A stretch of DNA of 64,000 bases from Actinomycetes bacterium (GCA_014190275.1 BJGE01000002.1:21038-85037); one strand, 5' to 3'. Numbered from the stretch's first letter, positions 9,729-57,148 are shown. The notes: a model not told the origin generated them from the sequence alone. A program made the numbers and translations.

Positions 9729-9995
9729 ATGAGCGTGGTCAGCCCCGGCGGGTCTATCGGCATCTACGACCTAAAGAACCAGTTATCCGCGGTCCTAGAG
9801 GAAGTCATGGAAGGCAAAGAGGTAACTGTCACTAAGCACGGACGTCCCATCGCTCGCATAGCGCCCATCAAGGCGGCTGATCGCGAGGATCGGGCGGCCG
9901 CTGTTGCTGCCATCCGCCAGTTGGGTGAGGCAGTTCGCCGACTGCCTGCGGAGGCGACGGGCCGTGAGTTGATCGACGACGGGCGTGCTAGGTGA
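9729..9995 (+). CDS. type II antitoxin, Phd/YefM family
   Basis: The 88-aa translation starts with YDLKNQLSAVLEEVMEGKEVTVTKHGRPIARI, which is typical of Phd/YefM. It overlaps the downstream PIN gene by 4 nt. Confidence 0.75.
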   Translation: MSVVSPGGSIGIYDLKNQLSAVLEEVMEGKEVTVTKHGRPIARIAPIKAADREDRAAAVAAIRQLGEAVRRLPAEATGRELIDDGRAR

Positions 9996-10414
9996 GCGAC
10001 CTGGGCGGAGCCGTCCTTGATGCGTCAGCTGCCATAGGTTGGGTGCTTCGAGACGGGGACCCTGAAGCCGAAGCGAATATCGACTCTCTCTTGACCAACG
10101 GGTTCGCTCTCGTTCCCGAGTTATGGCACGCGGAGATGGCCAATGCCTTCCGCACTGCTATGCGGGCCGGGCGAGTCGACGCTGCGTTCGTGGTCGGTGT
10201 TTGCGAACGACTCGACCAATTGGATATCCGAACCGATGTTGTGGGCAGCCAGGTTCAGCGGCTAGCACTCGAGGCGCAAAAACATGGGCTCACCTCGTAC
10301 GACACGTGCTACTTACTGCTAGCTATGGACCGGGGGCTTCCGTTAGCAACCCTTGACCGGAAGTTGGCTAAAGCGGCGGCGGCGGCCGACGTCGCCTTGC
10401 TCCTACCGATATGA
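9992..10414 (+). CDS. vapC: type II toxin, PIN-domain ribonuclease VapC
   Basis: The 140-aa translation has the PIN acidic residues in the expected order (VLDASA, PELWHAE, SYDTCYL, ATLDRKL). Confidence 0.8.
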   Translation: MSDLGGAVLDASAAIGWVLRDGDPEAEANIDSLLTNGFALVPELWHAEMANAFRTAMRAGRVDAAFVVGVCERLDQLDIRTDVVGSQVQRLALEAQKHGLTSYDTCYLLLAMDRGLPLATLDRKLAKAAAAADVALLLPI

Positions 10415-13599: not shown

Positions 13600-15840
13600 C
13601 TAGCCCTTACTTGCTGAAAGCAGGAGTGAGGCAACATCGACAACCTCAACCCCGGCAGCGCCACCTTCTTGCTGGCGGGTGGTAACCGCATCGTTGAGCA
13701 TCACCGAGCAGAACGGGCAGGCGACGGCGATCTTCGCGGCGCCGGTCGCGATGGCCTCATCACCGCGATTCATGTTTACCTTGGTGCCAATCTTTTCTTC
13801 CATCCACATGCGGGCACCACCGGCGCCACAGCAGAACGACTTATCGCCATGGCGTTCCATCTCGACTCTGTCGACACCGGTGGCATCAATTAGGTCGCGC
13901 GGTGGCACATATACCTTGTTATGACGACCCAGATAGCACGGATCGTGGTAGGTGACTTTCTCTTCGATCTTGCTGACGGGTGTCAAGCGGCCGGCCTTGA
14001 CTAGGTCATTGAGCAACTGGGTGTGATGCACTACCTCGTAGTCGCCACCAAGTTGCGGATACTCACGTTTGAGCGTGTTCAGGCAGTGGGGGCAGGTGAC
14101 CACGATCTTCTTCGCCTTGATCTCGTTCAAAACTTCAACATTTTGCATACCCTGCATTTGGAACAAGAATTCATTACCTGCACGGCGTGCTGGATCACCG
14201 GTGCAGGTCTCGCCTTCACCGAGCACCATGAAATTCACACCAGCAATATGCATTAGTTCAGCAACCGCCTTGGTGGTGCGCTTGGCCCGATCTTCGAAGG
14301 CACCCGCGCAGCCAACCCAAAATAGGTAGTCGACGTCCTCGGGGATGACGTCCTCACCGTTGCTCCCGAAGACATTAACCTCGAAGTCAACCTCGGTGAT
14401 CCAGCCGTTTCGATCAGCGGCATTCATGCCCCACGGGTTACCCTTGGCCTCAATGTTCTTGAACATGCCATTGAGCTCGCTGGGGAATTCGCTTGCGATC
14501 ATGACCTGATTGCGACGCATGTCGGCGATATGGTCAATATGTTCGATATCGACCGGGCACTGATTCACGCAGGCGCCACACATCGTGCAACTCCACAGCG
14601 CAGCTTCGTCAATTATTGGCAGGTCAAGGCCGGTGGTGCGGTGGCCGTCGAAGGTGTAGCCGTCATCACCGGAGTGCTCGCTGCCTTCGCGCGAGCCAAT
14701 AAACGGCCGTTGCACTTCACCTTGGACAACAGGTGACACATAAGCGAGGGCTTCGGGAAGCAAGTCACCGGGCTCGGCCACCTTGTCTTGGTACTTACTA
14801 AATAGGCGGCCGGCCTCGAGATACGGGGCGGATGCGAAGAGGTTCTCGCGCAGATCCATGATGAGGAGTTTGGGGCTGAGCGGCTTACCGGTGTTCCAGG
14901 CCGGACACTGCGACTGGCAGCGGCCACATTCGGTGCAAGCCATGAAGTCGATGTAGTTCTTCCAGGTGAAGTCAGCGATATGGCCTTTGCCAAATAGTGC
15001 ATCATCGGGTGGATCCTCGAAGTTGACCGGGGCGCCCTGGTAGTAGATGGGTAGCAGCGGGCCGAGGGCATCGGGGCGACGCGAGGTGTAGACATTTACC
15101 GGCGCGGTAGCGATGTGAAGGTGCTTTGAGTGTAGAACGATCAATAAGAAGACGAGCACGACGCCGATCTGTAGCCAGATGCCGACTGTCTCGACGATTA
15201 CTAAGGTTTCCTCGCTAAGCCCCGACATCGAAGATCCAACCCAGTCGGAGAAGAAGGCGCCGCTTTCAAATGGGAGATTGCCGAGTGCCGATTGCGCACC
15301 TCGGTAGAGGAAAAGCGTCCAGACCACATTGAAGATCATGAACAAAATCAGCCAAGCGCCCTTGGTATGGCTGCCGAAGAACCGCGAGGCGCGACCTTCC
15401 TTGGCTGGGTTATTGGTCAGGCGAATAATCGCAAATAGACCGATGCCGACGAGAACTAAAACCCCGAATAGATCTTCTAGGAAACCAATGATCGCCCAAC
15501 GTCCGACAACGGGAATTCCAAAATCCGCGATGAAGAGGGCGCCGTAGGCTTCCAAAATAGTCAGGCCAAGGACTAAGAACCCCCAGAACGCAAAGACGTG
15601 CGCGATACCGGGTACCGCCCACTTAAGTAATTTGCGCTGGCCGAGCACCTCGGTGGCCTCGGCCTCCACCCGGCGCGGCGCGTTCTTGGTGCGGCCAACG
15701 GCGGGTCTGCCGGTGCCAACAAGTTTGAAGAGGAACAACCCCCGCTTCGCAGCGAGCCCGAGGAGAATGACCGTGAGGAGCACACCGATCACAGCGCGAA
15801 GAAGCAAAGCACCTCCATGCAAGGAACAACCCGTCAGCAA
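13600..15840 (-). CDS. membrane-anchored (Fe-S)-binding reductase with two 4Fe-4S motifs and two CCG domains (HdrD/GlpC-like, Rv0338c-like)
   Basis: The N-terminal ~250 aa are hydrophobic. Two ferredoxin motifs follow (CTECGRCQSQCP and CTMCGACVNQCP), then cysteine-rich CCG-type blocks (VGCAGAF, CPHCLNT, DPCYLGRHN, FCCGAGG, CPFCSVM). The TTG start is uncertain. Confidence 0.8.
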   Translation of the reverse strand: MLTGCSLHGGALLLRAVIGVLLTVILLGLAAKRGLFLFKLVGTGRPAVGRTKNAPRRVEAEATEVLGQRKLLKWAVPGIAHVFAFWGFLVLGLTILEAYGALFIADFGIPVVGRWAIIGFLEDLFGVLVLVGIGLFAIIRLTNNPAKEGRASRFFGSHTKGAWLILFMIFNVVWTLFLYRGAQSALGNLPFESGAFFSDWVGSSMSGLSEETLVIVETVGIWLQIGVVLVFLLIVLHSKHLHIATAPVNVYTSRRPDALGPLLPIYYQGAPVNFEDPPDDALFGKGHIADFTWKNYIDFMACTECGRCQSQCPAWNTGKPLSPKLLIMDLRENLFASAPYLEAGRLFSKYQDKVAEPGDLLPEALAYVSPVVQGEVQRPFIGSREGSEHSGDDGYTFDGHRTTGLDLPIIDEAALWSCTMCGACVNQCPVDIEHIDHIADMRRNQVMIASEFPSELNGMFKNIEAKGNPWGMNAADRNGWITEVDFEVNVFGSNGEDVIPEDVDYLFWVGCAGAFEDRAKRTTKAVAELMHIAGVNFMVLGEGETCTGDPARRAGNEFLFQMQGMQNVEVLNEIKAKKIVVTCPHCLNTLKREYPQLGGDYEVVHHTQLLNDLVKAGRLTPVSKIEEKVTYHDPCYLGRHNKVYVPPRDLIDATGVDRVEMERHGDKSFCCGAGGARMWMEEKIGTKVNMNRGDEAIATGAAKIAVACPFCSVMLNDAVTTRQQEGGAAGVEVVDVASLLLSASKG

Positions 15841-15867: not shown

Positions 15868-18800
15868 TTAGTTCGCCATCGCAGTAGGCAGTTGCCCAAG
15901 TGCGACCAATGCCACATCCTGGAAGTCCTCGGGATGGTCCTTCGCGTAGGAGGTCAGATCCTGAATCATTTGCGGGGCCCAGAACATCTTGAGGTGCGTG
16001 GCTACGGCCTCGATCGCCGCCAATTGGTGGAGGTGAGTGTTGTTCGAGGTGATTTCATTTACCATCCGGACCAAGGTGGCGATGGCATCCTCATGGACTT
16101 CAACGCGCAGTTCCTCCAGACCGAGGTCTTCGGCTGATGCCAACCCACCGGCCTGGAGGGTGGGTCGTACCTCGACCGCGGTGACCTTGTATTCAGGGCA
16201 GTTGGTCGCCCAGTCCGAGTACTCGGTGGTCACGACATTGGCGCCACTTACGGGAAAGTGGAATGTCGTGTAAACCACGCCGGGGGGCACGCGCTCGGAG
16301 ATGCGCGCGTGCATCTTGGTCTTGCCAACGCGGCTGGCTAGCTCAACCCAAGAGCCATCTGTGATTCCACGCAGTTGTGCATCTGACTCATGAATATCGA
16401 GAAAATCCTCAGATTGCCAGATGACATTTGCGGTGCGCCTTGTTTGCGCTCCCACGTTGTACTGGCTGACGGCGCGACCGGTGGTGAGGAGCAGCGGGTA
16501 GCGCCGGGTAGAACGCTCAGGAGTCGGTACGTAGGGGGTTTCGACAAAGCGGCCTTCGCCACGGGTGAACTCACCAACGTGCATTGTCGGCGTGCCTTCG
16601 GGGTGCTCGGTGTTGCATGGCCATTGGATACTGCCCAGTTCATCGAGCTTCGCGAAGGAGACACCGGCGAAGGTGGGGGTAACCTGTGCGATTTCGTCCA
16701 TGATTTGCGAGGCATCGTCGTAATGCATTGGGTAGCCGAGGGCTTTTGCCAGATCGCAGGTCACCTCCCATTCGGCTTTACCTGTTCGACTGGCCATGAT
16801 TGGGCGCACCCGATTGATGCGGCGCTCGGCGTTAGTGAAAGTGCCGTCCTTCTCTAAGAATGAAGTTCCGGGTAAGAAGACATGTGCGTAGGCCGAAGTT
16901 TCGTTTAGAAACAGATCCTGCACGATAACTAAGTCCATTGAGGCTAGAGCATTTGTCACATGCGAGGTATTTGGATCAGACTGCGCAATGTCTTCCCCTT
17001 GAATGTAGATACCGCGGAAACTTCCGACCACGGCCGCATCGAGCATATTAGGTATGCGCAGCCCCGGAACCGATTGCAACTCGCGGCCCCAAAGTGCCTC
17101 GAATTGCTGCCGCACCGCATCATCTGATACATGCCGGTAGCCGGAGTACTCATGGGGGAACGAGCCCATGTCGCAGGAGCCCTGCACATTGTTCTGCCCA
17201 CGCAGTGGGTTAACTCCGACACCCTCACGACCGATACTTCCGGTGAGCATGGCCAAGTTGGCCATGCCGATGACCATGGTTGAGCCCTGGCTGTGCTCGG
17301 TGACTCCGAGGCCGTAATAAATCGCGGAGTTTGGTCCGGCGGCGTACAGACGAGCCGCACCGCGGAGAGTATCCGCCGGCACCCCGGATTCGGTGGCGAC
17401 TGCCTCCGGGCTGTTGCTAGGAAGTTTAATGAAGTCCTCCCATGCCTGGAAAGCTTCGTCATCACAGCGCGCCGCTATGAAGGCTTTGTCATGGAGTCCT
17501 TCGGTCAAGATGACGTGGGCCAGCGCATTTATTACCGCAACGTTGGTGCCCGGCTGCAACTGCAGGTGGTAGTCGGCCTTGATATGCGGTGAACGCACCA
17601 AGTCGGTAGTCCGTGGATCAACCACTATCAATTTGGCCCCGGCTCGAAGTCGTCGCTTCATTCGCGACCCAAAGACCGGATGGGCATCGATTGGGTTGGC
17701 TCCGATCACCAAGATTACGTCAGATTTTTCAACGGACTTGAAATCTTGGGTGCCGGCCGACGTGCCGAAGGTCTTTTTGAGTCCGTAGCCGGTTGGTGAA
17801 TGGCAGACCCGGGCGCAGGTATCAACATTGTTATTGCCGAATCCAGCCCGCACGAGCTTTTGAACAACATAAACATCTTCGTTGGTGCACCTAGATGAGG
17901 TGATGCCACCGATGCTGTCGATACCGTACTGCGCCTGGATTTCTTTGAGTTTATTCGCTGCGTACCCGATCGCCTCTTCCCACGGAACTTCGCGCCACGG
18001 ATCGGTAATGGCTTCCCTTATCATCGGTTTTAGAACCCGATCTGGGTGCGTGGTGTAGCCGAAAGCGAAGCGCCCCTTGACGCAGGAGTGACCTTCATTG
18101 GCGCCACCATCTTTATAGGGCACCATGCGCACAAGTTCGTCACCGCGCATTTCAGCTTTAAATGTGCACCCCACCCCGCAATAGGCGCAAGTCGTCAGCA
18201 CGGTACGGGTCGGGGTGCCGAGTTCGATGACCGCCTTTTCCTGCAGGGTTGACGTCGGGCAGGCCTGCACGCAGGCGCCGCAGGAAACACACTCACTCTC
18301 CAGGAAATTCAGGCCACCAGGGCTCACTTTGGAATTGAATCCGCGCCCCTCAATAGTTAACGCGAAAGTGCCTTGGACTTCACTGCACGCCCGCACGCAG
18401 CGGCTGCAGACAATGCACTTGCTCTCGTCGAAGGAGAAATACGGATTACTGTCGTCGGTTGGTGCATCAAGGTGGTTCTCACCGGCGTAGCCGTAGCGCA
18501 CATCCCGCAACCCCACCACACCCGCCATGTCCTGGAGCTCGCAGTCACCGTTAGCCGGGCAGGTCAGGCAATCAAGTGGATGGTCGGAGATGTAGAGCTC
18601 CATCACCCCGCGTCTGAGTCGATCGAGTTTGGGGGAGGTGGTGTGCACCACCATGCCGGACTCACATGGGGTGGTGCAGGAGGCCGGAGTCCCCTTCTTG
18701 CCATCGATTTCAACCAAGCACAATCGGCACGATCCAAATGGCTCGAGTGAGTCGGTTGCGCAAAGTTTCGGTATCGGTATGCCGGCTTCACTTGCGGCAC

Positions 18801-18915
18801 GCAGGACAGACGTGCCGACTGCCACCGATACATCATGGCCATCGACGCTGACGGTGACTGTTTCGCTCCCCATTTTGGCCGGGGTGCCGTAATCATGCTC
18901 GCGTAAAATTGTCAT
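15868..18915 (-). CDS. fdsA: NAD-dependent formate dehydrogenase alpha subunit (molybdopterin, Cys type) with C-terminal FdsD-like extension
   Basis: The 1015-aa translation has N-terminal 2Fe-2S and 4Fe-4S motifs, the MopB active-site block DTCARVCHSPTGYG and the C-terminal CPEYKVTAVEV. An extra ~85 aa follow (LVRMVNEITSNN...HLKMFWAPQM) that resemble FdsD. Confidence 0.9.
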   Translation of the reverse strand: MTILREHDYGTPAKMGSETVTVSVDGHDVSVAVGTSVLRAASEAGIPIPKLCATDSLEPFGSCRLCLVEIDGKKGTPASCTTPCESGMVVHTTSPKLDRLRRGVMELYISDHPLDCLTCPANGDCELQDMAGVVGLRDVRYGYAGENHLDAPTDDSNPYFSFDESKCIVCSRCVRACSEVQGTFALTIEGRGFNSKVSPGGLNFLESECVSCGACVQACPTSTLQEKAVIELGTPTRTVLTTCAYCGVGCTFKAEMRGDELVRMVPYKDGGANEGHSCVKGRFAFGYTTHPDRVLKPMIREAITDPWREVPWEEAIGYAANKLKEIQAQYGIDSIGGITSSRCTNEDVYVVQKLVRAGFGNNNVDTCARVCHSPTGYGLKKTFGTSAGTQDFKSVEKSDVILVIGANPIDAHPVFGSRMKRRLRAGAKLIVVDPRTTDLVRSPHIKADYHLQLQPGTNVAVINALAHVILTEGLHDKAFIAARCDDEAFQAWEDFIKLPSNSPEAVATESGVPADTLRGAARLYAAGPNSAIYYGLGVTEHSQGSTMVIGMANLAMLTGSIGREGVGVNPLRGQNNVQGSCDMGSFPHEYSGYRHVSDDAVRQQFEALWGRELQSVPGLRIPNMLDAAVVGSFRGIYIQGEDIAQSDPNTSHVTNALASMDLVIVQDLFLNETSAYAHVFLPGTSFLEKDGTFTNAERRINRVRPIMASRTGKAEWEVTCDLAKALGYPMHYDDASQIMDEIAQVTPTFAGVSFAKLDELGSIQWPCNTEHPEGTPTMHVGEFTRGEGRFVETPYVPTPERSTRRYPLLLTTGRAVSQYNVGAQTRRTANVIWQSEDFLDIHESDAQLRGITDGSWVELASRVGKTKMHARISERVPPGVVYTTFHFPVSGANVVTTEYSDWATNCPEYKVTAVEVRPTLQAGGLASAEDLGLEELRVEVHEDAIATLVRMVNEITSNNTHLHQLAAIEAVATHLKMFWAPQMIQDLTSYAKDHPEDFQDVALVALGQLPTAMAN

Positions 18916-20444
18916 CGCTGGAAGTCCTCCGGGAATTGGCGGAGTGCACTCAGTACCGGCATCGGGGTCAAGCCGCCCATGGCACAGAGTGAACCATCAA
19001 TCATCAGGTCGCACAAGTCGTTGAGTAATTCCAGGTTCTCGTTTCGATCGACGTTATTGATGATCTTGTCGATGACTTCGGTCCCGCGCACCGAGCCCAC
19101 GCGACACGGCGTGCACTTGCCGCAGGACTCCTTCGAGCAGAATTCCATGGCAAAGCGCGCCTGTTGGGCCATATCGACCGAGTCATCGAAGACAACAATC
19201 CCACCGTGCCCCAGCATGCCGCCGGCGGCGAGCAGCGCTTCGTAATCCATCGCCACATCCAGTGCACTGGCCGGGAAATAGGCACCCAGGGGCCCGCCCA
19301 CCTGAACGGATCGAACGGGTCGACCGGAGCGGGTACCACCCCCATACGTCTCAACCAACTCCTTGAGGCTGATCCCGAAGGCGCGCTCCACGATCCCACC
19401 CCGAGCGATATTGCCGGCAAGTTGGAATACCTGGGTACCGCGGGAGCGGTCAGCGCCAAGGGCTTGATAGGCGGCGGCGCCCTGGGCCAAGATCATCGGC
19501 ACGGTACCCAAGGTCAAGACATTGTTGACGATGGTGGGCTCACCGAAAAGCCCGTGCAGGGCCGGAATCGGCGGCTTGGCGCGCACCATTCCGCGTTTGC
19601 CCTCAAGGCTTTCGAGCATCGCGGTTTCCTCACCGCAGACGTACGAGCCGGCGCCGACCCGCACGGAGATGTCGAAAGCCTTACCGCTACCGAGTACATC
19701 GTCACCGAGTAGGCCGCATCCCCTGGCGATCAGCAAGGCGGCTCGCATGGTGGCAATTGCATCCGGGTACTCGGACCTGATGTAGATCAAGCCCTTGGTT
19801 GCCCCGCCCGCGATGCCGGCGATGGCCATGCCTTCGATGAGGGTGAATGGATCACCTTCCATCAGCATTCGATCGGCGAAGGTGCCGCTGTCGCCTTCAT
19901 CGGCATTGCAGCAAACATACTTTTGCCCCGACTCGGCCTCCAGCACCGTGCGCCATTTAATGCCAGCGGGGAACCCTGCGCCACCTCGGCCACGCAACCC
20001 GGAGGCTAGTACTTCCTCGACTGTTTTCGAAGGTCCAAGTGCAATGGCTGTTCGCAAGCCGGTGAGGCCACCGTGGGCTTCGTAGTCGTTGATGTCTAGT
20101 GGGTCGATAACACCAACGCGCGCGAAGGTCACTCGCTGCTGATCGGCTAGCCACGGGATATCCTCAACAATGCCAACGGAAAAACCGTTATCAGCACCGG
20201 TTAAGAAATCCGAATCGAAAAGTGCAGCAACATCGGCGGCGGTCACTGGGCCATAACCGACCCGGCCTTCAACCGTCTCGACTTCAACCAGTGGTTCTAA
20301 CCAGAGCAGTCCCCGTGAACCGTTGCGCACCAACCGAATATCAATATCTCGCCGCCTCGCCTCGGCGGTAATCGCAAGGGCAACGGCAGTCGCACCGACC
20401 GAAGTCGCGGCGCTGTCGATAGGCACATAGACGGTGTTTGTCAT
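18912..20444 (-). CDS. fdsB: formate dehydrogenase beta subunit (NuoF-like, FMN/NAD-binding, 4Fe-4S)
   Basis: It has a GLRGRGGAGFPAGIKW FMN/NAD site and a C-terminal ESCGKCTPCR cluster motif. Start and stop overlap both neighbours by 4 nt. Confidence 0.85.
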   Translation of the reverse strand: MTNTVYVPIDSAATSVGATAVALAITAEARRRDIDIRLVRNGSRGLLWLEPLVEVETVEGRVGYGPVTAADVAALFDSDFLTGADNGFSVGIVEDIPWLADQQRVTFARVGVIDPLDINDYEAHGGLTGLRTAIALGPSKTVEEVLASGLRGRGGAGFPAGIKWRTVLEAESGQKYVCCNADEGDSGTFADRMLMEGDPFTLIEGMAIAGIAGGATKGLIYIRSEYPDAIATMRAALLIARGCGLLGDDVLGSGKAFDISVRVGAGSYVCGEETAMLESLEGKRGMVRAKPPIPALHGLFGEPTIVNNVLTLGTVPMILAQGAAAYQALGADRSRGTQVFQLAGNIARGGIVERAFGISLKELVETYGGGTRSGRPVRSVQVGGPLGAYFPASALDVAMDYEALLAAGGMLGHGGIVVFDDSVDMAQQARFAMEFCSKESCGKCTPCRVGSVRGTEVIDKIINNVDRNENLELLNDLCDLMIDGSLCAMGGLTPMPVLSALRQFPEDFQR

Positions 20445-20929
20445 AGTGCCACCCGCGCATCGGAAAGGGCAGCCTCAAGAGTATTCGGTGTAAGCCGCCC
20501 AACTAGCCGCTCATTGATGAGCGCGGCTGGGCCGAGTGCGCAGTTACCGAGGCAGAAGACCTCGACCACATCCACTTGGTCGTCGGTGGATCTGCCGCCT
20601 ACCGGGGCGAGGTTCGCACTCACGTGGACAATCAACTCACGTGCTCCCGCGGCTTGGCAGGCCTCAGCAACGCAGATCGCGACAATTATTGGGGCGGAGG
20701 CCGTAGTGCGCAGCTCGTGGTAGTAGGTGAGCACCCCGTGGACGTCAGCCACCGAAACATTAAGTGCCACCGCGATTTGGGCCACCGCCTCCTTGGGCAC
20801 GTAGCCGAAACCCTGCTGCACCGCCTGCAGTGCGGGGAGGATAAGGCGTTCGTCGTAGGGGAGGAGCTTAAGCAACTCTTGGCCGTCCGCCTGCGTCCAC
20901 GGTCTTACTCGGTGCGCCACTGATGCCAT
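20441..20929 (-). CDS. fdsG: formate dehydrogenase gamma subunit (NuoE-like 2Fe-2S)
   Basis: The 162-aa translation has NuoE-type cysteines (ICVAEACQAAG...FCLGNCALGPA). It is the first gene of the minus-strand operon. Confidence 0.8.
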   Translation of the reverse strand: MASVAHRVRPWTQADGQELLKLLPYDERLILPALQAVQQGFGYVPKEAVAQIAVALNVSVADVHGVLTYYHELRTTASAPIIVAICVAEACQAAGARELIVHVSANLAPVGGRSTDDQVDVVEVFCLGNCALGPAALINERLVGRLTPNTLEAALSDARVAL

Positions 20930-21061
20930 CCTTTCGCCCGGAGCAGGTGCCGCCTTGCTACCTGATGATAGGGGATCAAAAAATTAGTATAACCAATTTC
21001 ACCATTCGGGTTGACGTGGGGGGTTTCCGAGAGGACAGTGCCGAACAAGGCGAATCGACGC

Positions 21062-21097
21062 GCACGCTGCCCGCTAATAGGGGGGTTAGCAGCGTGC
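21062..21097 (+). promoter_or_regulatory. GC-rich hairpin in the amiS 5' leader
   Basis: GCACGCTGC (21062-21070) pairs perfectly with GCAGCGTGC (21089-21097). The hairpin lies 5 nt upstream of the GAAAGGTGG ribosome-binding site. No U-tract follows it. Confidence 0.3.
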
Positions 21098-21115
21098 ATA
21101 TGAAAGGTGGCGCAT

Positions 21116-21715
21116 ATGGGCGCAGTTGGATTGCTGTATGTCGGTGCAGTTCTCTTCCTAAATGGGACGATGTTGCTCGGCTGGATTGACAGTAAGTCTG
21201 CAGCACCGCTTAATATTTTTGTGGGAATTCTGCAGGTGATTACACCGACGTATTTAATCATAAATGCAAATGGTGACATGACGACTATTCTGGGAGCCTC
21301 TGGACTTTATTTGTTCGGGTTCACATATTTGTACGTGGCTTTTAATCTCTTTTTCAACCTGGATGGCACTGGTTTGGGAATGTTTTCACTGTACGTCGCT
21401 ATCGCGGCGGTGTTTTTCTCCTTAGTGTCCTTCAATGCGGGTGACCCAGTTTTCGGGGTCATCTGGCTGTACTGGGCATTCCTGTGGTTGCTGTTCTATC
21501 TATTGCTCGCACTTAAGCGAGACAACTTAGGAAGATACACGGGTGGAGTGGCTGTCGTTCAGGGTTTTGTGACGGGCTTTGTCCCGTCATTCTTGCTCTT
21601 GACCGGACGCATTGCGGACATTGAGTCTGGGACGCTAGCCATAGTCCTGGCCGTGGTTGGAGTTGTTCTCTTTGCTGGTCTCTACGTGAAGTTGAAGGCA
21701 CCTGTAGCTGCTTGA
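21116..21715 (+). CDS. amiS: AmiS/UreI family amide/urea channel
   Basis: This is a six-TM protein beginning MGAVGLLYVGAVLFLNGTMLLG, which is characteristic of AmiS/UreI. The ATG at 21116 is preferred over the GTG at 21107 because of RBS spacing. Confidence 0.8.
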   Translation: MGAVGLLYVGAVLFLNGTMLLGWIDSKSAAPLNIFVGILQVITPTYLIINANGDMTTILGASGLYLFGFTYLYVAFNLFFNLDGTGLGMFSLYVAIAAVFFSLVSFNAGDPVFGVIWLYWAFLWLLFYLLLALKRDNLGRYTGGVAVVQGFVTGFVPSFLLLTGRIADIESGTLAIVLAVVGVVLFAGLYVKLKAPVAA

Positions 21716-21767
21716 CCAGTTTGACAAATGTTTATTGGTAATTCCCCATCAATTATTTGGAGTGCTA

Positions 21768-23096
21768 ATGCCAAAGAATTTATTTCCGCTAGATAACAAG
21801 AAGTCATTCACAAATCAAAAGCATGTCGGCCACAACCGCTGGCATCCAGATATCCCGCACAATGTCACGGTGAAACCGGGTGACAGTTTTCACGCCGATT
21901 GTCGTGAGTGGTTCGACGGTGCCATCCGAAACAATGATTCAGCGGACGATGTTCGTGATGCGCCACTCGCTGGCGTGCACGTACTCTCCGGCCCGTTTCG
22001 GATTGAAGGTGCCAAGCCAGGTGACCTACTCGTGGTCGACATCCTCGACGGTGGCCCCTGTGGCGACCCAGATGGTGATCGCCTCACCGAAAACCGCGAT
22101 GGCATCTCCGGCGAAGGCTGGGGCTACACCGGTGTTTTCCCACTGGAGAATGGCGGCGGCTTCCTCGTCGATCAGTTCCCCGATGCCTACAAGGCGATTT
22201 GGGATTTCAATGGTGGCAAGGCGACGTCACGCCATATCCCCGGAGTTTCGTACACCGGTATTTTCCACCCCGGACTCATGGGCACCGCCCCTTCGGCGGA
22301 GTTGCTAGCCAAGTGGACCAAGCGGGAGAAGGCGCTTATCGCGACCAACCCGACCCGGGTACCACCCCTTGCGCTGCCACCGAACCCTGATAGTGCGATC
22401 TTGGGCAAGCTCAAGGGTGCGGATTACGATCGGGTGGCCGGTGAGGCTGCACGTACTGCACCACCACGCGAAAACGGTGGCAACCAGGACATCAAGAACT
22501 TCACCAAGGGCACCCGGGTCTTCTACCCGGTGTTTGTTGATGGAGCGAATTTGTCCTTCGGTGACCTCCACTTCTCACAGGGCGACGGTGAAATCACTTT
22601 CTGCGGCGCCATTGAGATGGGTGGGTTCTTGGACCTCGGTGTTGACGTCATCAAGGGTGGTATGGAGAAGTACGGTGTCTCCGAGAATGCCATCTTCATG
22701 CCGGGCAACACCGATCCGCAGTACAGCGAATGGCTAGCCTTCTCGGGCACTTCGGTGACACTAGATGGCGAGCAGAAGTACTTGGATTCGTTCCTGGCGT
22801 ACCAGCGGGCGAACCTGCATGCAATCGACTACCTGATGAAGTTCGGGTATACCGCTATCCAGGCCTACATGATCTTGGGTACGGCACCTGTCGAAGGTCG
22901 CCTTTCGGGCGTCGTTGACATCCCGAATGCTTGCTCGACGGTTTACATCCCGCGGGCAATCTTCGACATGGACGTCGCGCCGAGTGCAAGTGGTCCGACC
23001 CAGGTCAAGGGCAGCGTTGCATCAGGTGGCATGGATGTGCCGATGTCACGTTGGGCAGATCACGTCGAAGGCAAGTGGGCTCCGTACCCCTGGTAA
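21768..23096 (+). CDS. fmdA: formamidase (acetamidase/formamidase family)
   Basis: From the ATG at 21768 the translation MPKNLFPLDNKKSFTNQKHVGHNRWHPDIP...NGGNQDIKN...DLHFSQGDGEITFCGAIEM matches FmdA-type enzymes. A GGAG lies 5 nt upstream. Confidence 0.85.
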   Translation: MPKNLFPLDNKKSFTNQKHVGHNRWHPDIPHNVTVKPGDSFHADCREWFDGAIRNNDSADDVRDAPLAGVHVLSGPFRIEGAKPGDLLVVDILDGGPCGDPDGDRLTENRDGISGEGWGYTGVFPLENGGGFLVDQFPDAYKAIWDFNGGKATSRHIPGVSYTGIFHPGLMGTAPSAELLAKWTKREKALIATNPTRVPPLALPPNPDSAILGKLKGADYDRVAGEAARTAPPRENGGNQDIKNFTKGTRVFYPVFVDGANLSFGDLHFSQGDGEITFCGAIEMGGFLDLGVDVIKGGMEKYGVSENAIFMPGNTDPQYSEWLAFSGTSVTLDGEQKYLDSFLAYQRANLHAIDYLMKFGYTAIQAYMILGTAPVEGRLSGVVDIPNACSTVYIPRAIFDMDVAPSASGPTQVKGSVASGGMDVPMSRWADHVEGKWAPYPW

Positions 23097-24299: not shown

Positions 24300-26135
24300 A
24301 TGGCCCGAGCAGTAGGTATCGACCTTGGTACGACCAACTCGGTCGTATCGGTCCTCGAAGGCGGCGAACCCGTCGTTATTGCAAACGCGGAAGGTTCCCG
24401 GACGACCCCGTCCGTGGTGGCTTTTGCCAAGAATGGTGAAGTGCTGGTCGGCGAGGTCGCCAAGCGCCAGGCCGTCACCAATATTGATCGCACGGTGCGC
24501 TCGGTCAAGCGACACATGGGCACCAAATGGACCGTCGACATCGACGGCAAGAACTACACCCCCCAGGAGATCAGCGCCCGCACCCTGATGAAACTCAAGC
24601 GCGACGCGGAGGCCTATCTCGGCGAGAACGTCACCGACGCGGTTATCACCGTGCCTGCCTACTTCTCCGACGCCGAGCGCCAAGCCACCAAAGAAGCTGG
24701 CGAGATCGCCGGCCTCAATGTGCTTCGGATTATCAACGAGCCGACAGCGGCGGCGCTGGCTTATGGCCTCGACAAGGGTGATAAAGAGCAAACCATCTTG
24801 GTTTTCGACCTCGGCGGCGGCACCTTCGACGTCTCACTCCTTGAAATCGGCGACGGTGTTGTCGAGGTTAAAGCAACAAGTGGCGATAACCATCTAGGCG
24901 GCGATGACTGGGACAACAAAGTTGTCGACTGGATGGTCACCGAGTTCAAGAATGCACACGGTGTCGATCTTTCGAAAGACAAGATGGCGATGCAGCGGCT
25001 GCGCGAGGCAGCAGAGAAAGCCAAGATCGAGCTGTCGAGTTCGATGCAGACCTCCATCAACCTGCCATACATCACGGCGAGCGCTGATGGCCCTCTACAC
25101 CTTGACGAGACTTTGAGCCGGGCGCAGTTTGAGTCGATGACCCAAGACCTACTCGATCGCACCAAGGCGCCATTCCAGGCGGTCTTGAAGGATGCGGGAA
25201 TCGCACTCGACAAGATCGACCAGGTCGTGCTCGTCGGCGGATCAACTCGCATGCCAGCCGTTACTGAATTGGTCAAGAAGGAAGCCGGCAAGGAGCCGAA
25301 CAAGGGTGTTAACCCAGATGAGGTCGTCGCCGTTGGCGCGGCCCTGCAGGCGGGTGTGCTGAAGGGTGAAGTCAAGGACGTTCTGCTGCTCGATGTGACC
25401 CCGCTATCGCTGGGCATCGAGACCAAGGGCGGTGTCATGACCAGACTAATCGAACGCAACACCACCATCCCGACGAAGCGCTCTGAAACCTTCACCACGG
25501 CGGACGACAACCAGCCTTCGGTACTGATTCAGGTCTACCAGGGTGAGCGTGAAATGGCCGCGTACAACAAGCGACTTGGCACCTTCGAGCTGACTGGCTT
25601 ACCGCCGGCACCGCGGGGCGTCCCGCAGGTTGAAGTCACCTTCGATATCGATGCGAACGGGATTGTCCATGTGTCGGCTAAAGACATGGCGACCGGTAAA
25701 GAGCAGTCCATGACAATCTCGGGAGGCTCGGCGCTGGGCAAGGACGAAATCGATCGCATGATGCGGGAGGCCGAGCAGCACGCTGATGAAGACAAGCAGC
25801 GTCGCGATGAGGTCGAGGTCCGAAACACCGCCGAAGGGCTGGTCTATCAAACCGAGAAGTTCCTTGCGGATAACGCCGACAAGGTACCGGCGGATGCCAA
25901 GGCGAATGTTGAGGGCCCACTCGATGAGCTGAAGAAGGCCATTGAAGCCAATGACATCCCAGGAATGCGCGCGGCAACCGACAAGGTTGCCCAAACCAGC
26001 CAGACCCTGGGCGCAGCGATGTACGCGACAGCGCAAGCAGCCGGTGGCTCGGAAGGAGCAGCGGAGGCCGAGGCCGAGATGGCCGAGGACGATGTTGTCG
26101 ATGCCGAAATCATTGACGAGGAAGAAGCCAAGTGA
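24300..26135 (+). CDS. dnaK: molecular chaperone DnaK (Hsp70)
   Basis: The 611-aa translation is canonical: [17 protein letters not shown], the EEVD-like acidic tail. Confidence 0.97.
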
Positions 26136-26707
26136 GTTCTGAATATCAGAACGAGAATGAGGAGCAAGGTGTTCGGGTAACCGACAAGCGTCGGATTGAT
26201 CCGAATACCTATGCCCTACGTGATGTTGATGTGCAACCGGAGTCAGTGGAGGTGCGCCAGCAAGACGATGCTGGCGCACCCGCCACCGCTGAAGTAGACA
26301 AGTTGGCCGAACTAACGAATGACCTGCAACGGGTACAGGCGGAGTACGCAAACTACCGGCGTCGGGTGGATCGCGACCGTGAACTCGTCAAGGAGAATGC
26401 AATCGGCTCGGTGATTGCAGCGCTGCTACCAATAACCGATGACATCGATAGAGCGCGCGAGCACGGGGAACTAGAGGGCGCCTTCCGCAGTGTCGGCGAG
26501 GCGCTCGAGGCCGCGTTGGCGAGGTTGGGCTTGGAGAAATTCGGCGAGGCCAATGAACCCTTCGATCCGAATCTGCACGAGGCACTGTCGACTGAATCCC
26601 GTGCGGATATCTCTGAGCCAACGGTGACAGCTTTGTATCAGCCGGGCTATCGCTATGCGGGGCGTGTGTTGCGTCCGGCCCGAGTTGCTGTTGCGGGGAC
26701 CGACTAA
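26132..26707 (+). CDS. grpE: nucleotide exchange factor GrpE
   Basis: The GTG start overlaps the dnaK stop. It contains the AEYANYRRR motif and a GrpE C-terminal beta domain. Confidence 0.9.
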
Positions 26708-26709
26708 CT

Positions 26710-27882
26710 GTGAACAAAGACTGGCTCGAGAAGGACTTCTACGCGATTCTCGGCGTCAGCAAGGATTCCACGCCGGATGAAATAAAGAAGAAGTATCGCA
26801 AACTTGCACGCGAGCTGCACCCGGATAAGAACCCAGGCGACGCTAAAGCTGAGGAGCGCTTTAAGCAGGTTTCCGAGGCTTATGACGTGTTGTCCGATGA
26901 TGCGAAGCACAAGGAGTACGACGAAGCCCGGTCGTTATTTGCCAACGGTGGCTACCGCGCAGGCAGGTTTGGTGGTGGCCCGGGTGCAGGCCAAGGTGCT
27001 GGGCAATACAACGTGAACATGGAAGATCTATTTGGGGACGGCAATAGTGGTTTCGGCGATTTCCTCGGCGGGATCTTCAACCGCGGCCGGCCGGGCCGCA
27101 CTGCGCAGCCGCGTCGCGGTGGTGATCTGGAGAGCGAACTGACGCTGTCCTTTGATGATGCACTTGATGGGGTAACAGTGCCACTGCGTTTGAGCACTGA
27201 AGCAAGTTGCAAGACCTGCCACGGCACTGGTGCAAAGCTTGGTACTTCCCCCCGGGCCTGTCCGGCCTGCGAGGGTGCTGGCCAAACCGCTCGTAACGCC
27301 GGTGGTTTTGCTTTTGCAGAGCCGTGCACGGTCTGCCGTGGTCGCGGCGTATTCGTCGATGAACCGTGTACGGGATGCCGTGGATCGGGGCGTGGCCTGA
27401 GCACCCGCACGGTGCAAGCGCGAATCCCAGCAGGGGTTAAAGATGGCGCTCGCATTCGACTCAAGGGCAAAGGGGCACCCGGTGAACGTGGTGGCCCCGC
27501 CGGCGATCTTTTCGTCGTGGTCCACGTAACCGGGCACCCGATATTCGTGCGCAAGGGTGACAACATCACCTTGACAGTGCCCGTGACTTTCGTCGAGGCA
27601 ACCCTCGGTGGGCAAATCTCGGTGCCGGTGCCACGTGGTGGTTCGGTCAAATTGCGGATACCGGCGGGCACCACCAACGGCCGCACTTTCCGGGTTCGCG
27701 ATAAAGGGATCTTGCGCAAGGACGGCACCCACGGGGATGTGCTCGCCATGGTGGACATCGCAGTGCCACAGAAACTAAATGACGAAGCTGAGAAGGCACT
27801 TCGTGCCTATGCCGATCACACCGCAGATCACGATCCGCGAAAGGACCTCTATTCGATGACCGGGGCCGAGGGTGAGTTATGA
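26710..27882 (+). CDS. dnaJ: molecular chaperone DnaJ
   Basis: It has a J domain (DFYAILGV...HPDKNP), a G/F-rich region and four CxxCxGxG zinc motifs. Confidence 0.93.
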   Translation: MNKDWLEKDFYAILGVSKDSTPDEIKKKYRKLARELHPDKNPGDAKAEERFKQVSEAYDVLSDDAKHKEYDEARSLFANGGYRAGRFGGGPGAGQGAGQYNVNMEDLFGDGNSGFGDFLGGIFNRGRPGRTAQPRRGGDLESELTLSFDDALDGVTVPLRLSTEASCKTCHGTGAKLGTSPRACPACEGAGQTARNAGGFAFAEPCTVCRGRGVFVDEPCTGCRGSGRGLSTRTVQARIPAGVKDGARIRLKGKGAPGERGGPAGDLFVVVHVTGHPIFVRKGDNITLTVPVTFVEATLGGQISVPVPRGGSVKLRIPAGTTNGRTFRVRDKGILRKDGTHGDVLAMVDIAVPQKLNDEAEKALRAYADHTADHDPRKDLYSMTGAEGEL

Positions 27883-28229
27883 ACGAACCCAATCGCGGCT
27901 ACCACGCATCCGCCGACTCTCCCGTGTACATCATTTCTGTAGCAGCCCAACTAACCGGGCTGCATCCGCAGACCCTGCGGCAATATGACCGAATGGGTTT
28001 AGTCTCGCCAACGCGACTGGGCGGGCGTAATCGGTTGTACTCGGCCAATGACATCACGCGGCTGCGTGCGATAACCGATCTATCGGCCGAGGGTCTGACC
28101 TTGGAAGGGATCCGTCGAGTCCTGGAACTTCAGTTAGAAGTGGATCGATTGCGTGGCAGATTACAGGAGTTTCACCGAGAAAAATCAGCAACAGCTTTAG
28201 TAGTTTGGCGACCGGCGAGGAAGCAATAA
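27879..28229 (+). CDS. hspR: heat-shock transcriptional repressor HspR (MerR family)
   Basis: It has a MerR HTH ([26 protein letters not shown]). It is the fourth gene after dnaK-grpE-dnaJ and has an ATGA overlap with dnaJ. Confidence 0.85.
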
Positions 28230-28231
28230 CC

Positions 28232-30814
28232 ATGGATTTCCAGTTCACCACCAAGTCTGCGGATGCACTCAGCGCTGCCGTCCGCATTGCTGCGGCAAAT
28301 GGGAATGCACACGTTGAACCTATTCATCTACTTGATTCCCTATTGCAGCAAGGCGAGGGCATTGCGAGTGCACTCCTTGAGAGAGTCGGGGCCAACCAGA
28401 GCACTTTGACCCAAGAGGTCAGGTCCGCTATTGAGGCGCTGCCGTCAGCAAGTGGCTCGTCGGTCTCATCGCCGCAGTTGAGCAATGCGGGCTTCAAGGT
28501 GCTAAGCGAGGCTCAGGAGTTAGCCAAAGAGCGCGGCGATGATTATGTAAGCACCGAACACCTGCTGATCGGGCTTGCCAAAGACGGTGGCCCCGGGGTT
28601 AGTGATCGGTTGGTCGCGGCGGGGGCTAAGCCGGTAGCGCTAATGGATGCACTTAAACAAGTTAGGGGGGCGGCCCGCGTGACTACCCAGGATCCGGAGC
28701 AAACATTCCAAGCACTGGAAAAGTACGGGGTTGATCTAACGGCGCGAGCGCGCGAGGGCAAGATTGATCCGGTAATTGGCCGAGATGAAGAAGTCCGGCG
28801 CACCATCCAGGTGTTATCGCGTCGGACCAAGAACAACCCGGTGTTGATTGGTGAACCGGGTGTCGGCAAGACGGCGGTGGTTGAAGGTCTGGCCCGACGG
28901 ATTGTCGAGGGGGACGTTCCAACTTCACTCGCGGGCAAGACTTTATTCGCGCTTGACCTCGCCGCGATGATTGCGGGGGCGAAATATCGTGGTGAGTTTG
29001 AGGAGCGACTGAAGGCCGTACTTGATGAGATCAAGGGCAGTGATGGCCAGATCATCACCTTCATCGATGAACTCCATACCGTGGTCGGAGCTGGCGCCGG
29101 CGGTGAAGGTGCGATGGACGCCGGCAATATGTTGAAGCCGATGCTGGCTCGTGGTGAGTTGCGAATGATCGGTGCTACGACCTTAGATGAATACCGCAAG
29201 TACATCGAGAAAGATGCAGCACTTGAGCGCAGATTCCAGCAGGTATATGTAAGTCAACCATCGGTGGAAGACACGATTGCAATCTTGCGGGGCATCAAGG
29301 AGAAGTACGAGGCCCACCACAAGGTAGTTATCTCCGATAGTGCATTGGTGGCCGCTGCGACCCTTTCGGATCGCTACATAACCTCGCGCTTCTTGCCCGA
29401 TAAGGCAATCGATTTGATGGATGAGTCGGCATCAAGGCTTCGAATGGAGATTGACTCCTCGCCGGTGGAGATCGACGTGCTGCAGCGTCAGGTAGATCGA
29501 CTGCGCATGGAGGAGTTGGCGGTTGCCAAGGAGACCGACGATCCCTCCAAGGATCGACTCCAAAAGATCCGGACGGAGATCGCAGACAAGGAAGAGGAAT
29601 TGCGCGCATTGCGCGTACGTTGGGATGCGGAGAAGCAGGGCCTAGACCGTATCGGTGAGATCAAGGTTTTGATCGATGATCTGCGCGCGGTAGCCGAGAA
29701 GTCACAGCGTGAGGGCAACTTTGAGCAGGCCTCACGGATTCTCTATGCCGAGATCCCCACTTTTGAGGAGGAGTTGGCGCGGGTCACGGCTGAAACAAAT
29801 GCTCGCGACTCCGCAATGGTCAAGGAGGAGGTCACCGCCGATGACATCGCCGAAGTGGTATCAGCCTGGACGGGTATCCCTGCGGGTCGACTCCTGGAAG
29901 GTGAAACCCAAAAGCTACTTCAGATGGAAGAGCAGTTGGGCAGGCGTGTGGTTGGGCAAGGTGAGGCGGTAAGGGAGGTCGCGGACGCGGTCCGGCGGGC
30001 CCGGGCAGGGATCGCAGACCCGAACCGACCCACCGGATCTTTTTTATTTCTCGGTCCAACCGGTGTTGGTAAGACCGAGCTTGCGAAAGCCGTCGCAGAG
30101 TTTTTATTCGATGATGAGCGCGCGATGGTGCGAATTGATATGAGCGAGTACTCCGAGAAGCATTCGGTGGCGCGACTCGTGGGCGCTCCGCCCGGCTATG
30201 TCGGTTATGAGGAGGGGGGCCAGCTAACGGAGGCGGTTAGGCGCCGTCCCTACTCGGTGATCCTTTTGGATGAGGTTGAAAAAGCCCACCCGGAAGTATT
30301 CGATATCTTGCTGCAGGTACTCGATGATGGCCGATTGACCGATGGCCAAGGTCGAACCGTCGACTTCCGCAATGTGATAATGATCTTGACCTCGAATATG
30401 GGTTCGCAATTCCTAGTTGATACCGAGTTGCCATTTGCCGAGCGCAAGGCACTGGTCTTGGGTGCGGTACAGCAGAAGTTCCGGCCGGAGTTCCTAAACC
30501 GCCTCGATGCGATGGTGATGTTCGAGCCACTTGATCGCGCTGAACTCCTAAAGGTGACCGATATCCAAATCGAGCAACTGCGCCGGCGCCTAGCGGATCG
30601 CCGGATCACCCTTGAGGTAACCGGTGCAGCCAAGGATTGGTTGGTTGAAGTGGGATTTGACCCGATCTATGGTGCTCGACCGCTGCGCCGGCTGGTGCAA
30701 ACTGCGATAGGTGACAAGTTGGCCAAGGGGATCTTGGCCGGCCAAGTGCGCGATGGCGACAAGGTGGTAATCGGCGCCTCGGATGATGGTGAACTAACTT
30801 TGAAAACTTCCTGA
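28232..30814 (+). CDS. clpB: ATP-dependent chaperone ClpB
   Basis: From the ATG at 28232 (MDFQFTTKS) it has two AAA+ modules (GEPGVGKT and GPTGVGKT) and a coiled-coil middle domain. It starts 2 nt after the hspR stop. Confidence 0.95.
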
Positions 30815-42023: not shown

Positions 42024-44335
<2,312 letters not shown>

Positions 44336-44351
44336 TGGACAGGAGCACGCC

Positions 44352-44936
44352 TTGAAGATCTACGTGCAGTGGCCGATGCCGGCTGACACGGTTTTGGCCG
44401 GTAGCAACGTCACCTTGACCCTTGCTCAAGAAAGTGATGCGGCTGAATTATTCGCGGCGCTCGATCACGATTCAGTTTGGACCCATGTACGCGGCCGCCC
44501 GGATTCCGTCGGTGCGTTGACCGATGCGTTGGGAGCGGCCAATGAAGTCGGCCGCTGGCCTTGGGTCGTCCGGCAAAACGGTGAGGTGGTGGGCACCACG
44601 TCCTATCTGGAGGTGGCACCCGTTGATGCCAGACTCCAAATCGGCTTCACCCTTTATGCGCCAGCGGTCTGGGGAACGGTGGTCAATCCCGAATGCAAGC
44701 TACTGCTGATGACCTGGGCCTTCGAAGTGTCCGGGATGGGTCGCGTGCAACTTAATACCGATATCCGAAATGTGCGCAGCCAAGCGGCCATCGCCCGGGT
44801 TGGCGCTACCAAAGAAGGGGTGCTTCGCCGGTACCAGCGCCGTCAGGATGGCTCGGTACGCGACACCGTCGTGTATTCGGTGCTGGCCGATGAGTGGCCG
44901 GCGGTGAAGGCCGGGTTACTGGCGAGGCTGCCCTGA
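44352..44936 (+). CDS. GNAT family N-acetyltransferase (RimJ/RimL-like)
   Basis: It has an acetyltransferase fold pattern (RWPWVVRQNGEVVGTTSY...NVRSQAAIARVGATKEG). A TTG at 44352 follows AGGAG, and ATG at 44376 is an alternative start. Confidence 0.6.
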   Translation: MKIYVQWPMPADTVLAGSNVTLTLAQESDAAELFAALDHDSVWTHVRGRPDSVGALTDALGAANEVGRWPWVVRQNGEVVGTTSYLEVAPVDARLQIGFTLYAPAVWGTVVNPECKLLLMTWAFEVSGMGRVQLNTDIRNVRSQAAIARVGATKEGVLRRYQRRQDGSVRDTVVYSVLADEWPAVKAGLLARLP

Positions 44937-44950
44937 GGCCGAAGGCATCA

Positions 44951-44993
44951 TGATGCTTGAAACATTGATGCTTTGATGCTAATGGGCTAGGAT
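44951..44993 (+). promoter_or_regulatory. three direct TGATGCT repeats overlapping a TTGATG-17 nt-TAGGAT promoter upstream of vapB
   Basis: TGATGCT occurs at 44951, 44966 and 44974. The -35-like TTGATG lies at 44965 and the -10-like TAGGAT at 44988. The ATG at 45000 is 6 nt after the -10 box, so the transcript would be leaderless. Confidence 0.3.
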
Positions 44994-44999
44994 TTGGGT

Positions 45000-45287
45000 A
45001 TGCGAACCACTTTGACCTTGGACGATGATTTGGCCCTGGCGCTCCAAGAGGAATCTCGTAATACCGGACAGCCCTTTAAGACCGTGCTGAATCGGTACCT
45101 TCGGCGCGGCATGGCCGTGGCCCCCGCTCCTCGAGCACCCGTCGTGGTGCGCACCTTTGACGCGGGAGTTCGGGAGGGAATAGACGTCACCAAAGCTCTA
45201 GATCTGGTGGCGGAGATGGATGATGAGCACCTGCTTGCGGTCACGGCGCGATTAACGGCGGCAGCGGCTCAAGATGATCATTCCTGA
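45000..45287 (+). CDS. vapB: type II antitoxin VapB (ribbon-helix-helix-like)
   Basis: The N-terminus MRTTLTLDDDLALALQEESRNTG is typical of RHH-like VapB antitoxins. It overlaps the PIN gene by 14 nt. Confidence 0.7.
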   Translation: MRTTLTLDDDLALALQEESRNTGQPFKTVLNRYLRRGMAVAPAPRAPVVVRTFDAGVREGIDVTKALDLVAEMDDEHLLAVTARLTAAAAQDDHS

Positions 45288-45702
45288 TGCGAACCTGCTG
45301 ATTTATGCGGCTGACGTTAGATCAGTCTTTCACGAGCGCGCGCATGCTTGGTGGACTGGCGCCTTAAACAGTGACGAGGCGCTCGGGTTGAGTTGGCTGG
45401 TCCTAATCGCTTACGTGCGGATGTTGTCATCCCCCCGGATAACAATCAACCCGATCGGGGTAAGTGACCTATTGGCGGCAGTGGAAGAGTGGCTCGACTT
45501 GCCGTCGGTGCAGGTACTCCAACCAACCCGCAGGCACCCGCAGGCCCTACGTTCGCTGCTGGTCCCTACCTCAGTGGGCGGGAATCTGGTCAACGATGCG
45601 CATTTAGGAGCACTGGCACTGGAGTTCGGGGGCACCGTGTATTCCGCAGACTCCGACTTTGCCCGCTTCCCCAGTATTCGTTGGGTGAACCCACTTAAAT
45701 GA
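45274..45702 (+). CDS. vapC: type II toxin VapC (PIN domain)
   Basis: The translation has MIIPDANLLIYA...NDAHLGALALEFGGTVYSADSDFARF, with the PIN acidic residues in place. Confidence 0.8.
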   Translation: MIIPDANLLIYAADVRSVFHERAHAWWTGALNSDEALGLSWLVLIAYVRMLSSPRITINPIGVSDLLAAVEEWLDLPSVQVLQPTRRHPQALRSLLVPTSVGGNLVNDAHLGALALEFGGTVYSADSDFARFPSIRWVNPLK

Positions 45703-45787
45703 GCGCCCCGAAATATGCTGAACCTTGGCCCGGTTCTAAAGTGCTGGATAGCAACTGACCGAGAAGAATAGTGACAGGGAGCCCACC

Positions 45788-47134: not shown

Positions 47135-47138
47135 GTGC

Positions 47139-48407: not shown

Positions 48408-48448
48408 AATTTCGCCGATTTTTCCGACGCGAGCAAAGGGGAGCAGCC

Positions 48449-57144: not shown

Positions 57145-57148
57145 TTAG

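Follow-up and report, generated by a model that had tools for sequence, protein, structure and literature searches.

A formate dehydrogenase alpha subunit from a freshwater actinobacterium that very probably carries FdsD as a C-terminal domain

The DNA analyzed here is a stretch of 64,000 nucleotides (nt) from an Actinomycetes bacterium (GCA_014190275.1 BJGE01000002.1:21038-85037), referred to throughout as the window (64 kb). On its minus strand, three overlapping genes occupy 20929 to 15868, in the order fdsG-fdsB-fdsA::fdsD, and by homology encode a soluble, nicotinamide adenine dinucleotide (NAD+)-dependent formate dehydrogenase (FDH) of the FdsABGD type with a Cys-ligated Mo/W center. The host is a freshwater actinobacterium in which the delta cap protein of this enzyme is made as the C-terminal ∼70 residues of the catalytic alpha subunit. 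The original prediction, made from the DNA alone, had proposed that FdsD is fused to the C terminus of FdsA, and the peptide it quoted (…EDAIATLVRMVNEITSNNTHLHQLAAIEAVATHLKMFWAPQMIQDLTSYAKDHPEDFQDVALVALGQL…) is indeed present in a single open reading frame (ORF) of 1,015 amino acids (aa). We consider it highly probable that this FdsA::FdsD protein is a genuine translational fusion in an FdsABGD-type FDH, with a tail that would act as a cap latch on its own chain. The features of the locus are as follows.

20441..20929, minus strand: fdsG, 162 aa, NuoE-like 2Fe-2S subunit, first gene of the operon (Pfam 2Fe-2S_thioredx)
18912..20444, minus strand: fdsB, 510 aa, NuoF-like flavin mononucleotide/NAD subunit (Pfam Complex1_51K and NADH_4Fe-4S)
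15868..18915, minus strand: fdsA::fdsD fusion gene, 1015 aa, ATG start, TAA stop at 15868..15870 (ORF list and translation)
16159..18915, minus strand: FdsA part, residues 1-919, with a NuoG-like 2Fe-2S/4Fe-4S N terminus, Mo-bis-pyranopterin guanine dinucleotide (Mo-bisPGD) domains, and a cap domain ending …SDW(902)ATNCPEYKVTAVEVRPT
16210..16212, minus strand: codon of Trp902 in the cap loop (CCA on the plus strand), equivalent to Rhodobacter capsulatus Trp917 and invariant in 31 homologues
16096..16158, minus strand: linker, residues 920-940 (LQAGGLASAEDLGLEELRVEV), derived from the old FdsA C-terminal tail according to tail alignments
15892..16095, minus strand: FdsD domain, residues 941-1008, a predicted four-helix bundle (AlphaFold2); the PF11390 match covers residues 948-1005, 15901..16074

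The identity of the alpha part is clear from several kinds of comparison. The equivalog model TIGR01591 (Fdh-alpha) covers residues 241-916 with 899.5 bits against a cut-off of 666.25, residues 7-919 align to the solved FdsA chains 9wxb_B and 6tg9_A, and the N-terminal and cluster-binding regions match the Pfam families Fer2_4, NADH-G_4Fe-4S_3, Fer4_7, and Molybdop_Fe4S4. The metal ligand Cys371, together with His372 and Arg572, corresponds at a constant offset of 15 to Cys386, His387, and Arg587 of the R. capsulatus enzyme, and all three are invariant in the 31 homologues of alignment A3. The diaphorase pair, FdsB and FdsG, is encoded directly upstream of fdsA::fdsD (Pfam and NCBIfam matches), and the fdsB stop and fdsA start overlap by 4 nt. 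FdsB is 75% identical to the FdsB of locus L001, and the best NCBIfam match of FdsG is NF004638, "formate dehydrogenase subunit gamma," at 145 bits, under its cut-off of 198. The FdsA part also aligns over its full length, with very few gaps and more than 1400 bits, to the alphaproteobacterial FdsA chains 6tg9_A and 9wxb_B, and proteobacterial FdsA genes among the Genome Taxonomy Database (GTDB) loci described below are 66 to 74% identical to it. From such comparisons, the FdsA family would be either unusually conserved across phyla or exchanged between them.

The open frame runs 96 residues past …CPEYKVTAVEVRPT(919), the end of the alpha fold, which makes the protein 78 residues longer than the 937-aa FdsA of its closest unfused relatives. 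The interval first proposed for the extension, 15868..16128, covers residues 930-1015 and the stop codon. The accompanying statement that the alpha subunit normally ends just after CPEYKVTAVEV was roughly right, the correction being that unfused FdsA proteins extend 17 to 44 aa beyond CPEYK.

The additional residues match the FdsD family. PF11390 (FdsD) recognizes the tail with a score of 47.2 bits (gathering score 27; E = 2.9e-12) and matches it along positions 2-60 of the 61 in the profile; this was the hidden Markov model search that had been proposed as a check. A free-standing FdsD from a related contig finds the window at 16083..15889 by tblastn (E = 7.6e-12). The tail alone gave no match among Protein Data Bank (PDB) sequences at E ≤ 10 with phmmer, and NCBIfam held no model matching it. 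A profile built from 14 tails matched the PDB chains 9wxb_G (E = 1.8e-10) and 6tg9_D (E = 2.5e-9), with one other match at a chance-level E of 0.84. In the family motif L-x-R-M-x-N-x-I … H-x4-W-x3-M, the window tail and 35 free-standing FdsD proteins all share the M, I, H, W, and M without exception; among the 14 tails, L8, R10, M11, I15, H34, W39, and M43 do not vary. The pattern given in the original prediction is the real family consensus as far as LVRMANxIA…HLxxFWxPxM is concerned, and its "FF" part is absent here, where two asparagines stand instead.

Structure prediction agrees with the sequence profiles. The AlphaFold2 model of the tail, built on an alignment with the 35 free-standing FdsD proteins, has a mean predicted local distance difference test score (pLDDT) of 93.7 and helices at tail positions 2-18, 24-38, 41-53, and 60-73. 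When the model was compared with 350,542 PDB chains using Foldseek, the top two matches were 9ktl_G, the FdsD of Rhodobacter aestuarii, and 6tg9_D, that of R. capsulatus, both from cryo-electron microscopy structures, with template modelling (TM) scores of 0.71 to 0.80 and a root mean square deviation (rmsd) of 1.6 to 1.7 Å over 61 columns; all other matches had TM scores below 0.46. The short length of the domain makes the Foldseek E-values for the two chains weak (0.078 and 1.4). Profile and predicted fold together show the last ∼70 residues of the protein to be an FdsD domain.

The closest characterized system is the R. capsulatus FdsABGD complex (PDB 6TGA/6TG9; Radon et al. 2020, PMC7171172). 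Residues 7-917 of the alpha part align to its FdsA with E = 0 and 1442 bits, and the two systems have in common the catalytic Cys, His, and Arg, the cap-loop Trp, and the FdsB and FdsG partners. The alignment of the tail with R. capsulatus FdsD that had been proposed as a check gives, besides the profile match to chain D, a fold similarity of TM 0.72/0.77 with an rmsd of 1.6 Å. The difference lies in the arrangement: the R. capsulatus delta subunit is a separate protein of 71 aa whose gene follows fdsC in the operon fdsGBACD, whereas in the window delta is the C-terminal domain of alpha, and the operon is without fdsC or fdhD. The R. aestuarii FDH (9KTL) and PDB entry 9WXB have the same subunit set and fold but a free-standing delta; by structure the tail comes closest to 9ktl_G (TM 0.71/0.80), by profile to 9wxb_G.

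The fused architecture is widespread among relatives of the window protein. Of the 120 homologues that best match the whole protein, 37 are fused (1009 to 1027 aa, with PF11390) and 83 are unfused (924 to 940 aa, without PF11390), which answers the suggestion that FdsA proteins exceeding 1000 aa be surveyed. The fused ones are 74 to 100% identical to the window protein; one, P0001 from a public assembly, is identical to it over the 1015 aa, leaving 36 others. The long homologues carry the same conserved domain and not a low-complexity tail. Those relatives that are named are metagenome-assembled genomes (MAGs) of Candidatus Nanopelagicales or Actinomycetota. A scan with the FdsD profile, using one genome per GTDB species, returned 80 loci, 28 of which have the FdsD match and the FdsA C-terminal motif in one open frame. 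At least 18 GTDB species of the Nanopelagicales clade have the architecture, as does a second fused clade of 9 GTDB species from Acidimicrobiia/Ilumatobacteraceae and Verrucomicrobiota. These samples are biased toward relatives of the query and give no global frequency of fusion. An exhaustive FdsD profile search found 2240 cluster representatives at E ≤ 0.001, of which the best 150 were all 67 to 128 aa long, which confirms that FdsD is normally free-standing. Because fused representatives rank under the best 150 of the 2240, and conserved FdsA proteins probably merge into few clusters at 50%, this search gives no measure of how common fusions are. A word-indexed search returned two proteins with the tail alone and only short free-standing FdsD with the profile, and neither result gives a fusion frequency.

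A neighbor-joining tree of the alpha part (76 sequences, 200 bootstraps) places the fused genes at four separate positions. The main Nanopelagicales fused clade, which includes the window, has 69% support, and its unfused sister group has 100%. The fused protein P0033 lies inside that unfused sister group (99%), and the fused L030 lies inside unfused Micrococcales (98 to 100%). The fourth position is the clade of Acidimicrobiia/Ilumatobacteraceae and two Verrucomicrobiota MAGs, with 100% support. The junctions differ likewise. The main clade has 31 residues from CPEYK to the start of the FdsD profile match, L030 has 24, and the Acidimicrobiia/Verrucomicrobiota clade has 20. Counted up to the TL of the domain motif, the stretch is 25 residues long in P0033 and 36 in the main clade. 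The linker sequences, too, differ among the fused groups. The second fused clade has the same FdsA::FdsD architecture but a shorter, unrelated linker containing DHPEHRL, and its separate, fully supported position in the FdsA tree implies an independent fusion. By tree and junction, the two multispecies clades, of 18 and 9 GTDB species, are solid independent fusions. The singletons P0033/L086 and L030 may have arisen very recently or may reflect indel errors.

The second clade brings together two freshwater phyla at 100% bootstrap support with the common linker motif DHPEHRL. Its members are L057 and L060 (Verrucomicrobiota/Chthoniobacteraceae) and L044, L067, L071, L074, L077, L080, and L082 (Acidimicrobiia/Ilumatobacteraceae). 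This distribution suggests horizontal transfer of a fused operon, or mis-binning.

In relatives, fdsA lies directly against fdsD or overlaps it, so a single one-base indel error in sequencing or assembly would be enough to merge them, and the fused singletons that nest among unfused relatives could be errors of that kind. For the window, we regard such an artefact as extremely unlikely. The identical 1015-aa frame recurs in many independent assemblies, and the architecture is found across the at least 18 GTDB species noted above at 74 to 100% identity. Six orthologues (89 to 96% identity) each have exactly 1015 codons. In comparisons with these six, the ratio of nonsynonymous to synonymous substitution rates (dN/dS; dS is partly saturated) is 0.10 to 0.14 for the FdsD domain, 0.05 to 0.28 for the linker, and 0.03 to 0.045 for the alpha part. 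The tail is under purifying selection, and selection acts on linker and tail in the fused frame. The inherited frame, the equal lengths, and the low dN/dS together exclude an indel artefact for the clade of the window.

How the two genes became joined can be read from the unfused relatives. In the Nanopelagicales sister clade (L001/L002), fdhD lies divergently upstream, followed by fdsG, fdsB, a 937-aa fdsA, and a separate fdsD. This FdsA is 79.5% identical to that of the window and is encoded in the same fdsG-fdsB-fdsA order; the sister-clade FdsD, of 69 aa, is 37% identical to the window tail and, unlike it, comes from a separate gene. On reading the DNA, the most likely start of that fdsD is a GTG 2 nt past the fdsA TAG, in another frame. 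The comparison shows that the fusion derives from an ancestral arrangement of fdsA stop, 2 nt, and fdsD start, which the sister clade still keeps. Two contigs from sibling samples, ∼99% identical, differ in precisely this respect: L086 is fused (P0033, 1009 aa) and L087 is split (P0124, 73 aa, GTG start), with fdsA and fdsD overlapping by 19 nt in L087. Between L086:3900-4260 and L087:300-650, the contigs differ only by a 1-nt indel and by substitutions clustered within ∼30 nt at the junction, which may reflect strain polymorphism or assembly noise. With fdsA and fdsD abutting or overlapping in different frames, one small indel joins them, and fusion arises easily.

The linker itself is inherited. 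In unfused Micrococcales and Dermatophilaceae, the FdsA C terminus, 27 residues past CPEYK, reads …ELGLVQL; the corresponding positions in the fused clade read …DLGLEE…, and the fused clade conserves the first half of the linker (GG-AS--DLGL). These alignments show that the linker consists of the old FdsA C-terminal tail and the old FdsD N terminus, with no addition. In the full-length model its pLDDT is below 50, and it is predicted to be disordered. A disordered linker that is less constrained than the domains might be cut by a protease after translation, or an internal start might yield a separate FdsD, so that the mature enzyme would be a four-chain FdsABGD and the fusion only an expression device. 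We think this distinctly unlikely. The junction DNA, judged by inspection only, shows no in-frame internal start codon preceded by a Shine-Dalgarno-like motif at a suitable distance, and a separate FdsD from such a start has no support from that reading. The conservation of the first half of the linker also argues against release, and cleavage would not be required, FdsD already adjoining the FdsA C terminus in the known complex.

The reading that we prefer, a delta domain permanently tethered to alpha, rests for its geometry on the R. capsulatus cryo-electron microscopy structure, in which FdsD sits "near the FdsA C-terminus" and touches both molybdopterin guanine dinucleotide (MGD)-binding domains and the C-terminal cap-domain loop (PMC7171172). 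Phe16 and Phe17 of FdsD stack there on Trp917 of FdsA, and the authors proposed that FdsD holds the cap locked above bis-MGD (PMC7171172). With FdsD already beside the FdsA C terminus, joining the ends requires no new geometry. The last alpha-aligned and first FdsD-aligned residues are 28 residues apart in the window, and the corresponding free ends in R. capsulatus measure 24 and 5. By analogy, the tethered four-helix bundle would fold back on the Mo-bisPGD cap domain of its own chain and lock the C-terminal cap loop (Trp902) over bis-MGD, as free FdsD does in R. capsulatus. The flexible linker of ∼20 to 30 residues would keep the cap open until the cofactor had been inserted, and the tether would give an obligatory 1:1 stoichiometry and a high local concentration. 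We infer, then, an intramolecular latch on the protein's own cap domain.

Three points weigh against this view. The full-length AlphaFold2 model, built with 31 close homologues, is too poor for docking (mean pLDDT 54.6, predicted TM score 0.38). The FdsA::FdsD chain of 110 kDa, predicted from the gene, would have to stay uncleaved. Finally, "IAAFFA" of R. capsulatus 6tg9_D aligns to "ITSNNT" of the window, which replaces Phe16/Phe17 with Asn-Asn. The last point could mean that the tail has lost canonical docking and has become a flexible appendage that recruits, for example, a maturation factor or the membrane protein with Fe-S motifs and CCG domains that is encoded after the fusion gene in this sub-clade; the unlinking of fdhD from the operon in four fused contexts would fit such a role. 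We judge this very unlikely. The Phe-Phe pair is also absent from free-standing FdsD proteins of related Actinomycetota (IAANCS in the sister clade), so that its loss is a lineage trait and no consequence of fusion; judged by these alignments, the pair would mark proteobacterial enzymes rather than the whole FdsD family. Trp902 and the FdsA cap loop are invariant, and the downstream protein is not conserved across other fused genomes. The latch on the protein's own cap remains the reading that we favor.

The original prediction also held that the window has no separate fdsD and no fdsC- or fdhD-like maturation gene, and this was borne out. No second fdsD was found in the 64 kb by tblastn and Pfam scans of all major ORFs, no fdhD/fdsC was found there either (tblastn best E = 0.4; PF02634 in no major ORF), and Pfam scans of the major ORFs detected no molybdenum-cofactor biosynthesis genes in the window. 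Beyond it, fdhD was not found within 10 kb of the operon in the fused loci L083-L085 and L088. In every fused context examined, fdhD is gone from the operon. FdhD/FdsC proteins are sulfurtransferase-chaperones, and sulfuration of the FdhD type is regarded as essential.

Several other features of the window were recorded.

13600..15840, minus strand: gene for a 746-aa protein, starting 27 nt after the fdsA::D stop
20905..21279, minus strand: 124-aa ORF overlapping the fdsG start and the opposite-strand AmiS gene, without a Pfam match
21107..21715, plus strand: AmiS/UreI-family transporter gene
21735..23096, plus strand: formamidase gene (FmdA_AmdA, E = 5.5e-167)
24300..30814: dnaK-grpE-dnaJ-hspR-clpB
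42968..60211: purine biosynthesis genes
9992..10414, 45274..45702, and 53480..53890 (+): three ORFs with a PIN domain (VapC-like toxin)

The AmiS and formamidase genes are divergent from fdsG. Together with the FDH they suggest a module converting formamide to formate and NH3, and formate to CO2 and NADH. The AmiS-formamidase arrangement is also present in the 94%-identical relative L088 and absent from the other fused-clade genomes examined. The 746-aa protein has ∼5 to 6 N-terminal hydrophobic segments (aa 4 to 247), two 4Fe-4S motifs, and two CCG domains, and by these features looks like a membrane Fe-S oxidoreductase of the HdrD/GlpC/DsrK kind. Only L088 and L089, two close relatives, keep its gene in this downstream position, and a tie to the FDH is speculative. 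The CCG/Fe-S protein, the formamidase, and AmiS were rejected as parts of the system, being conserved only in the sub-clade of at least 90% identity to which the window belongs. The PIN-domain ORFs stand amid an otherwise housekeeping region, which includes the chaperone and purine genes listed above. The 124-aa ORF is probably not a gene.

A free-standing delta is also found in the Cupriavidus necator FdsDABG, which we take from the literature to be the same type of FDH. Earlier work describes the enzyme family and its subunits well, including what FdsD does, and what is new here we class as a domain-architecture variant. FdsA::FdsD is a routine fusion of adjacent, translationally coupled genes, and a modest variant of a well-known enzyme. 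No description of an FdsA-FdsD fusion was found in full-text searches, recent reviews, or a paper on the dimethyl sulfoxide reductase superfamily, and public databases name the fused proteins only "formate dehydrogenase subunit alpha."

A bolder proposal is that tethering of FdsD was selected repeatedly in streamlined freshwater lineages (Nanopelagicales on the one hand, Ilumatobacteraceae and Chthoniobacteraceae on the other), altering maturation and lessening the need for operon-linked helpers. We hold this to be unlikely; if true, heterologous assembly would be simpler for these natural single-chain alpha-delta enzymes than for the four-gene proteobacterial FDHs. For years it was disputed experimentally whether FdsD acts as a genuine subunit or only as a transient helper. 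Fusions that are conserved over many species and have arisen at least twice provide independent, "Rosetta-stone" evolutionary support for FdsD as a permanent 1:1 structural part of FdsA. Oxygen-tolerant NAD-linked FDHs are under development for CO2 reduction, and the natural fusions offer ready linkers and a template for single-chain alpha-delta versions of these enzymes.

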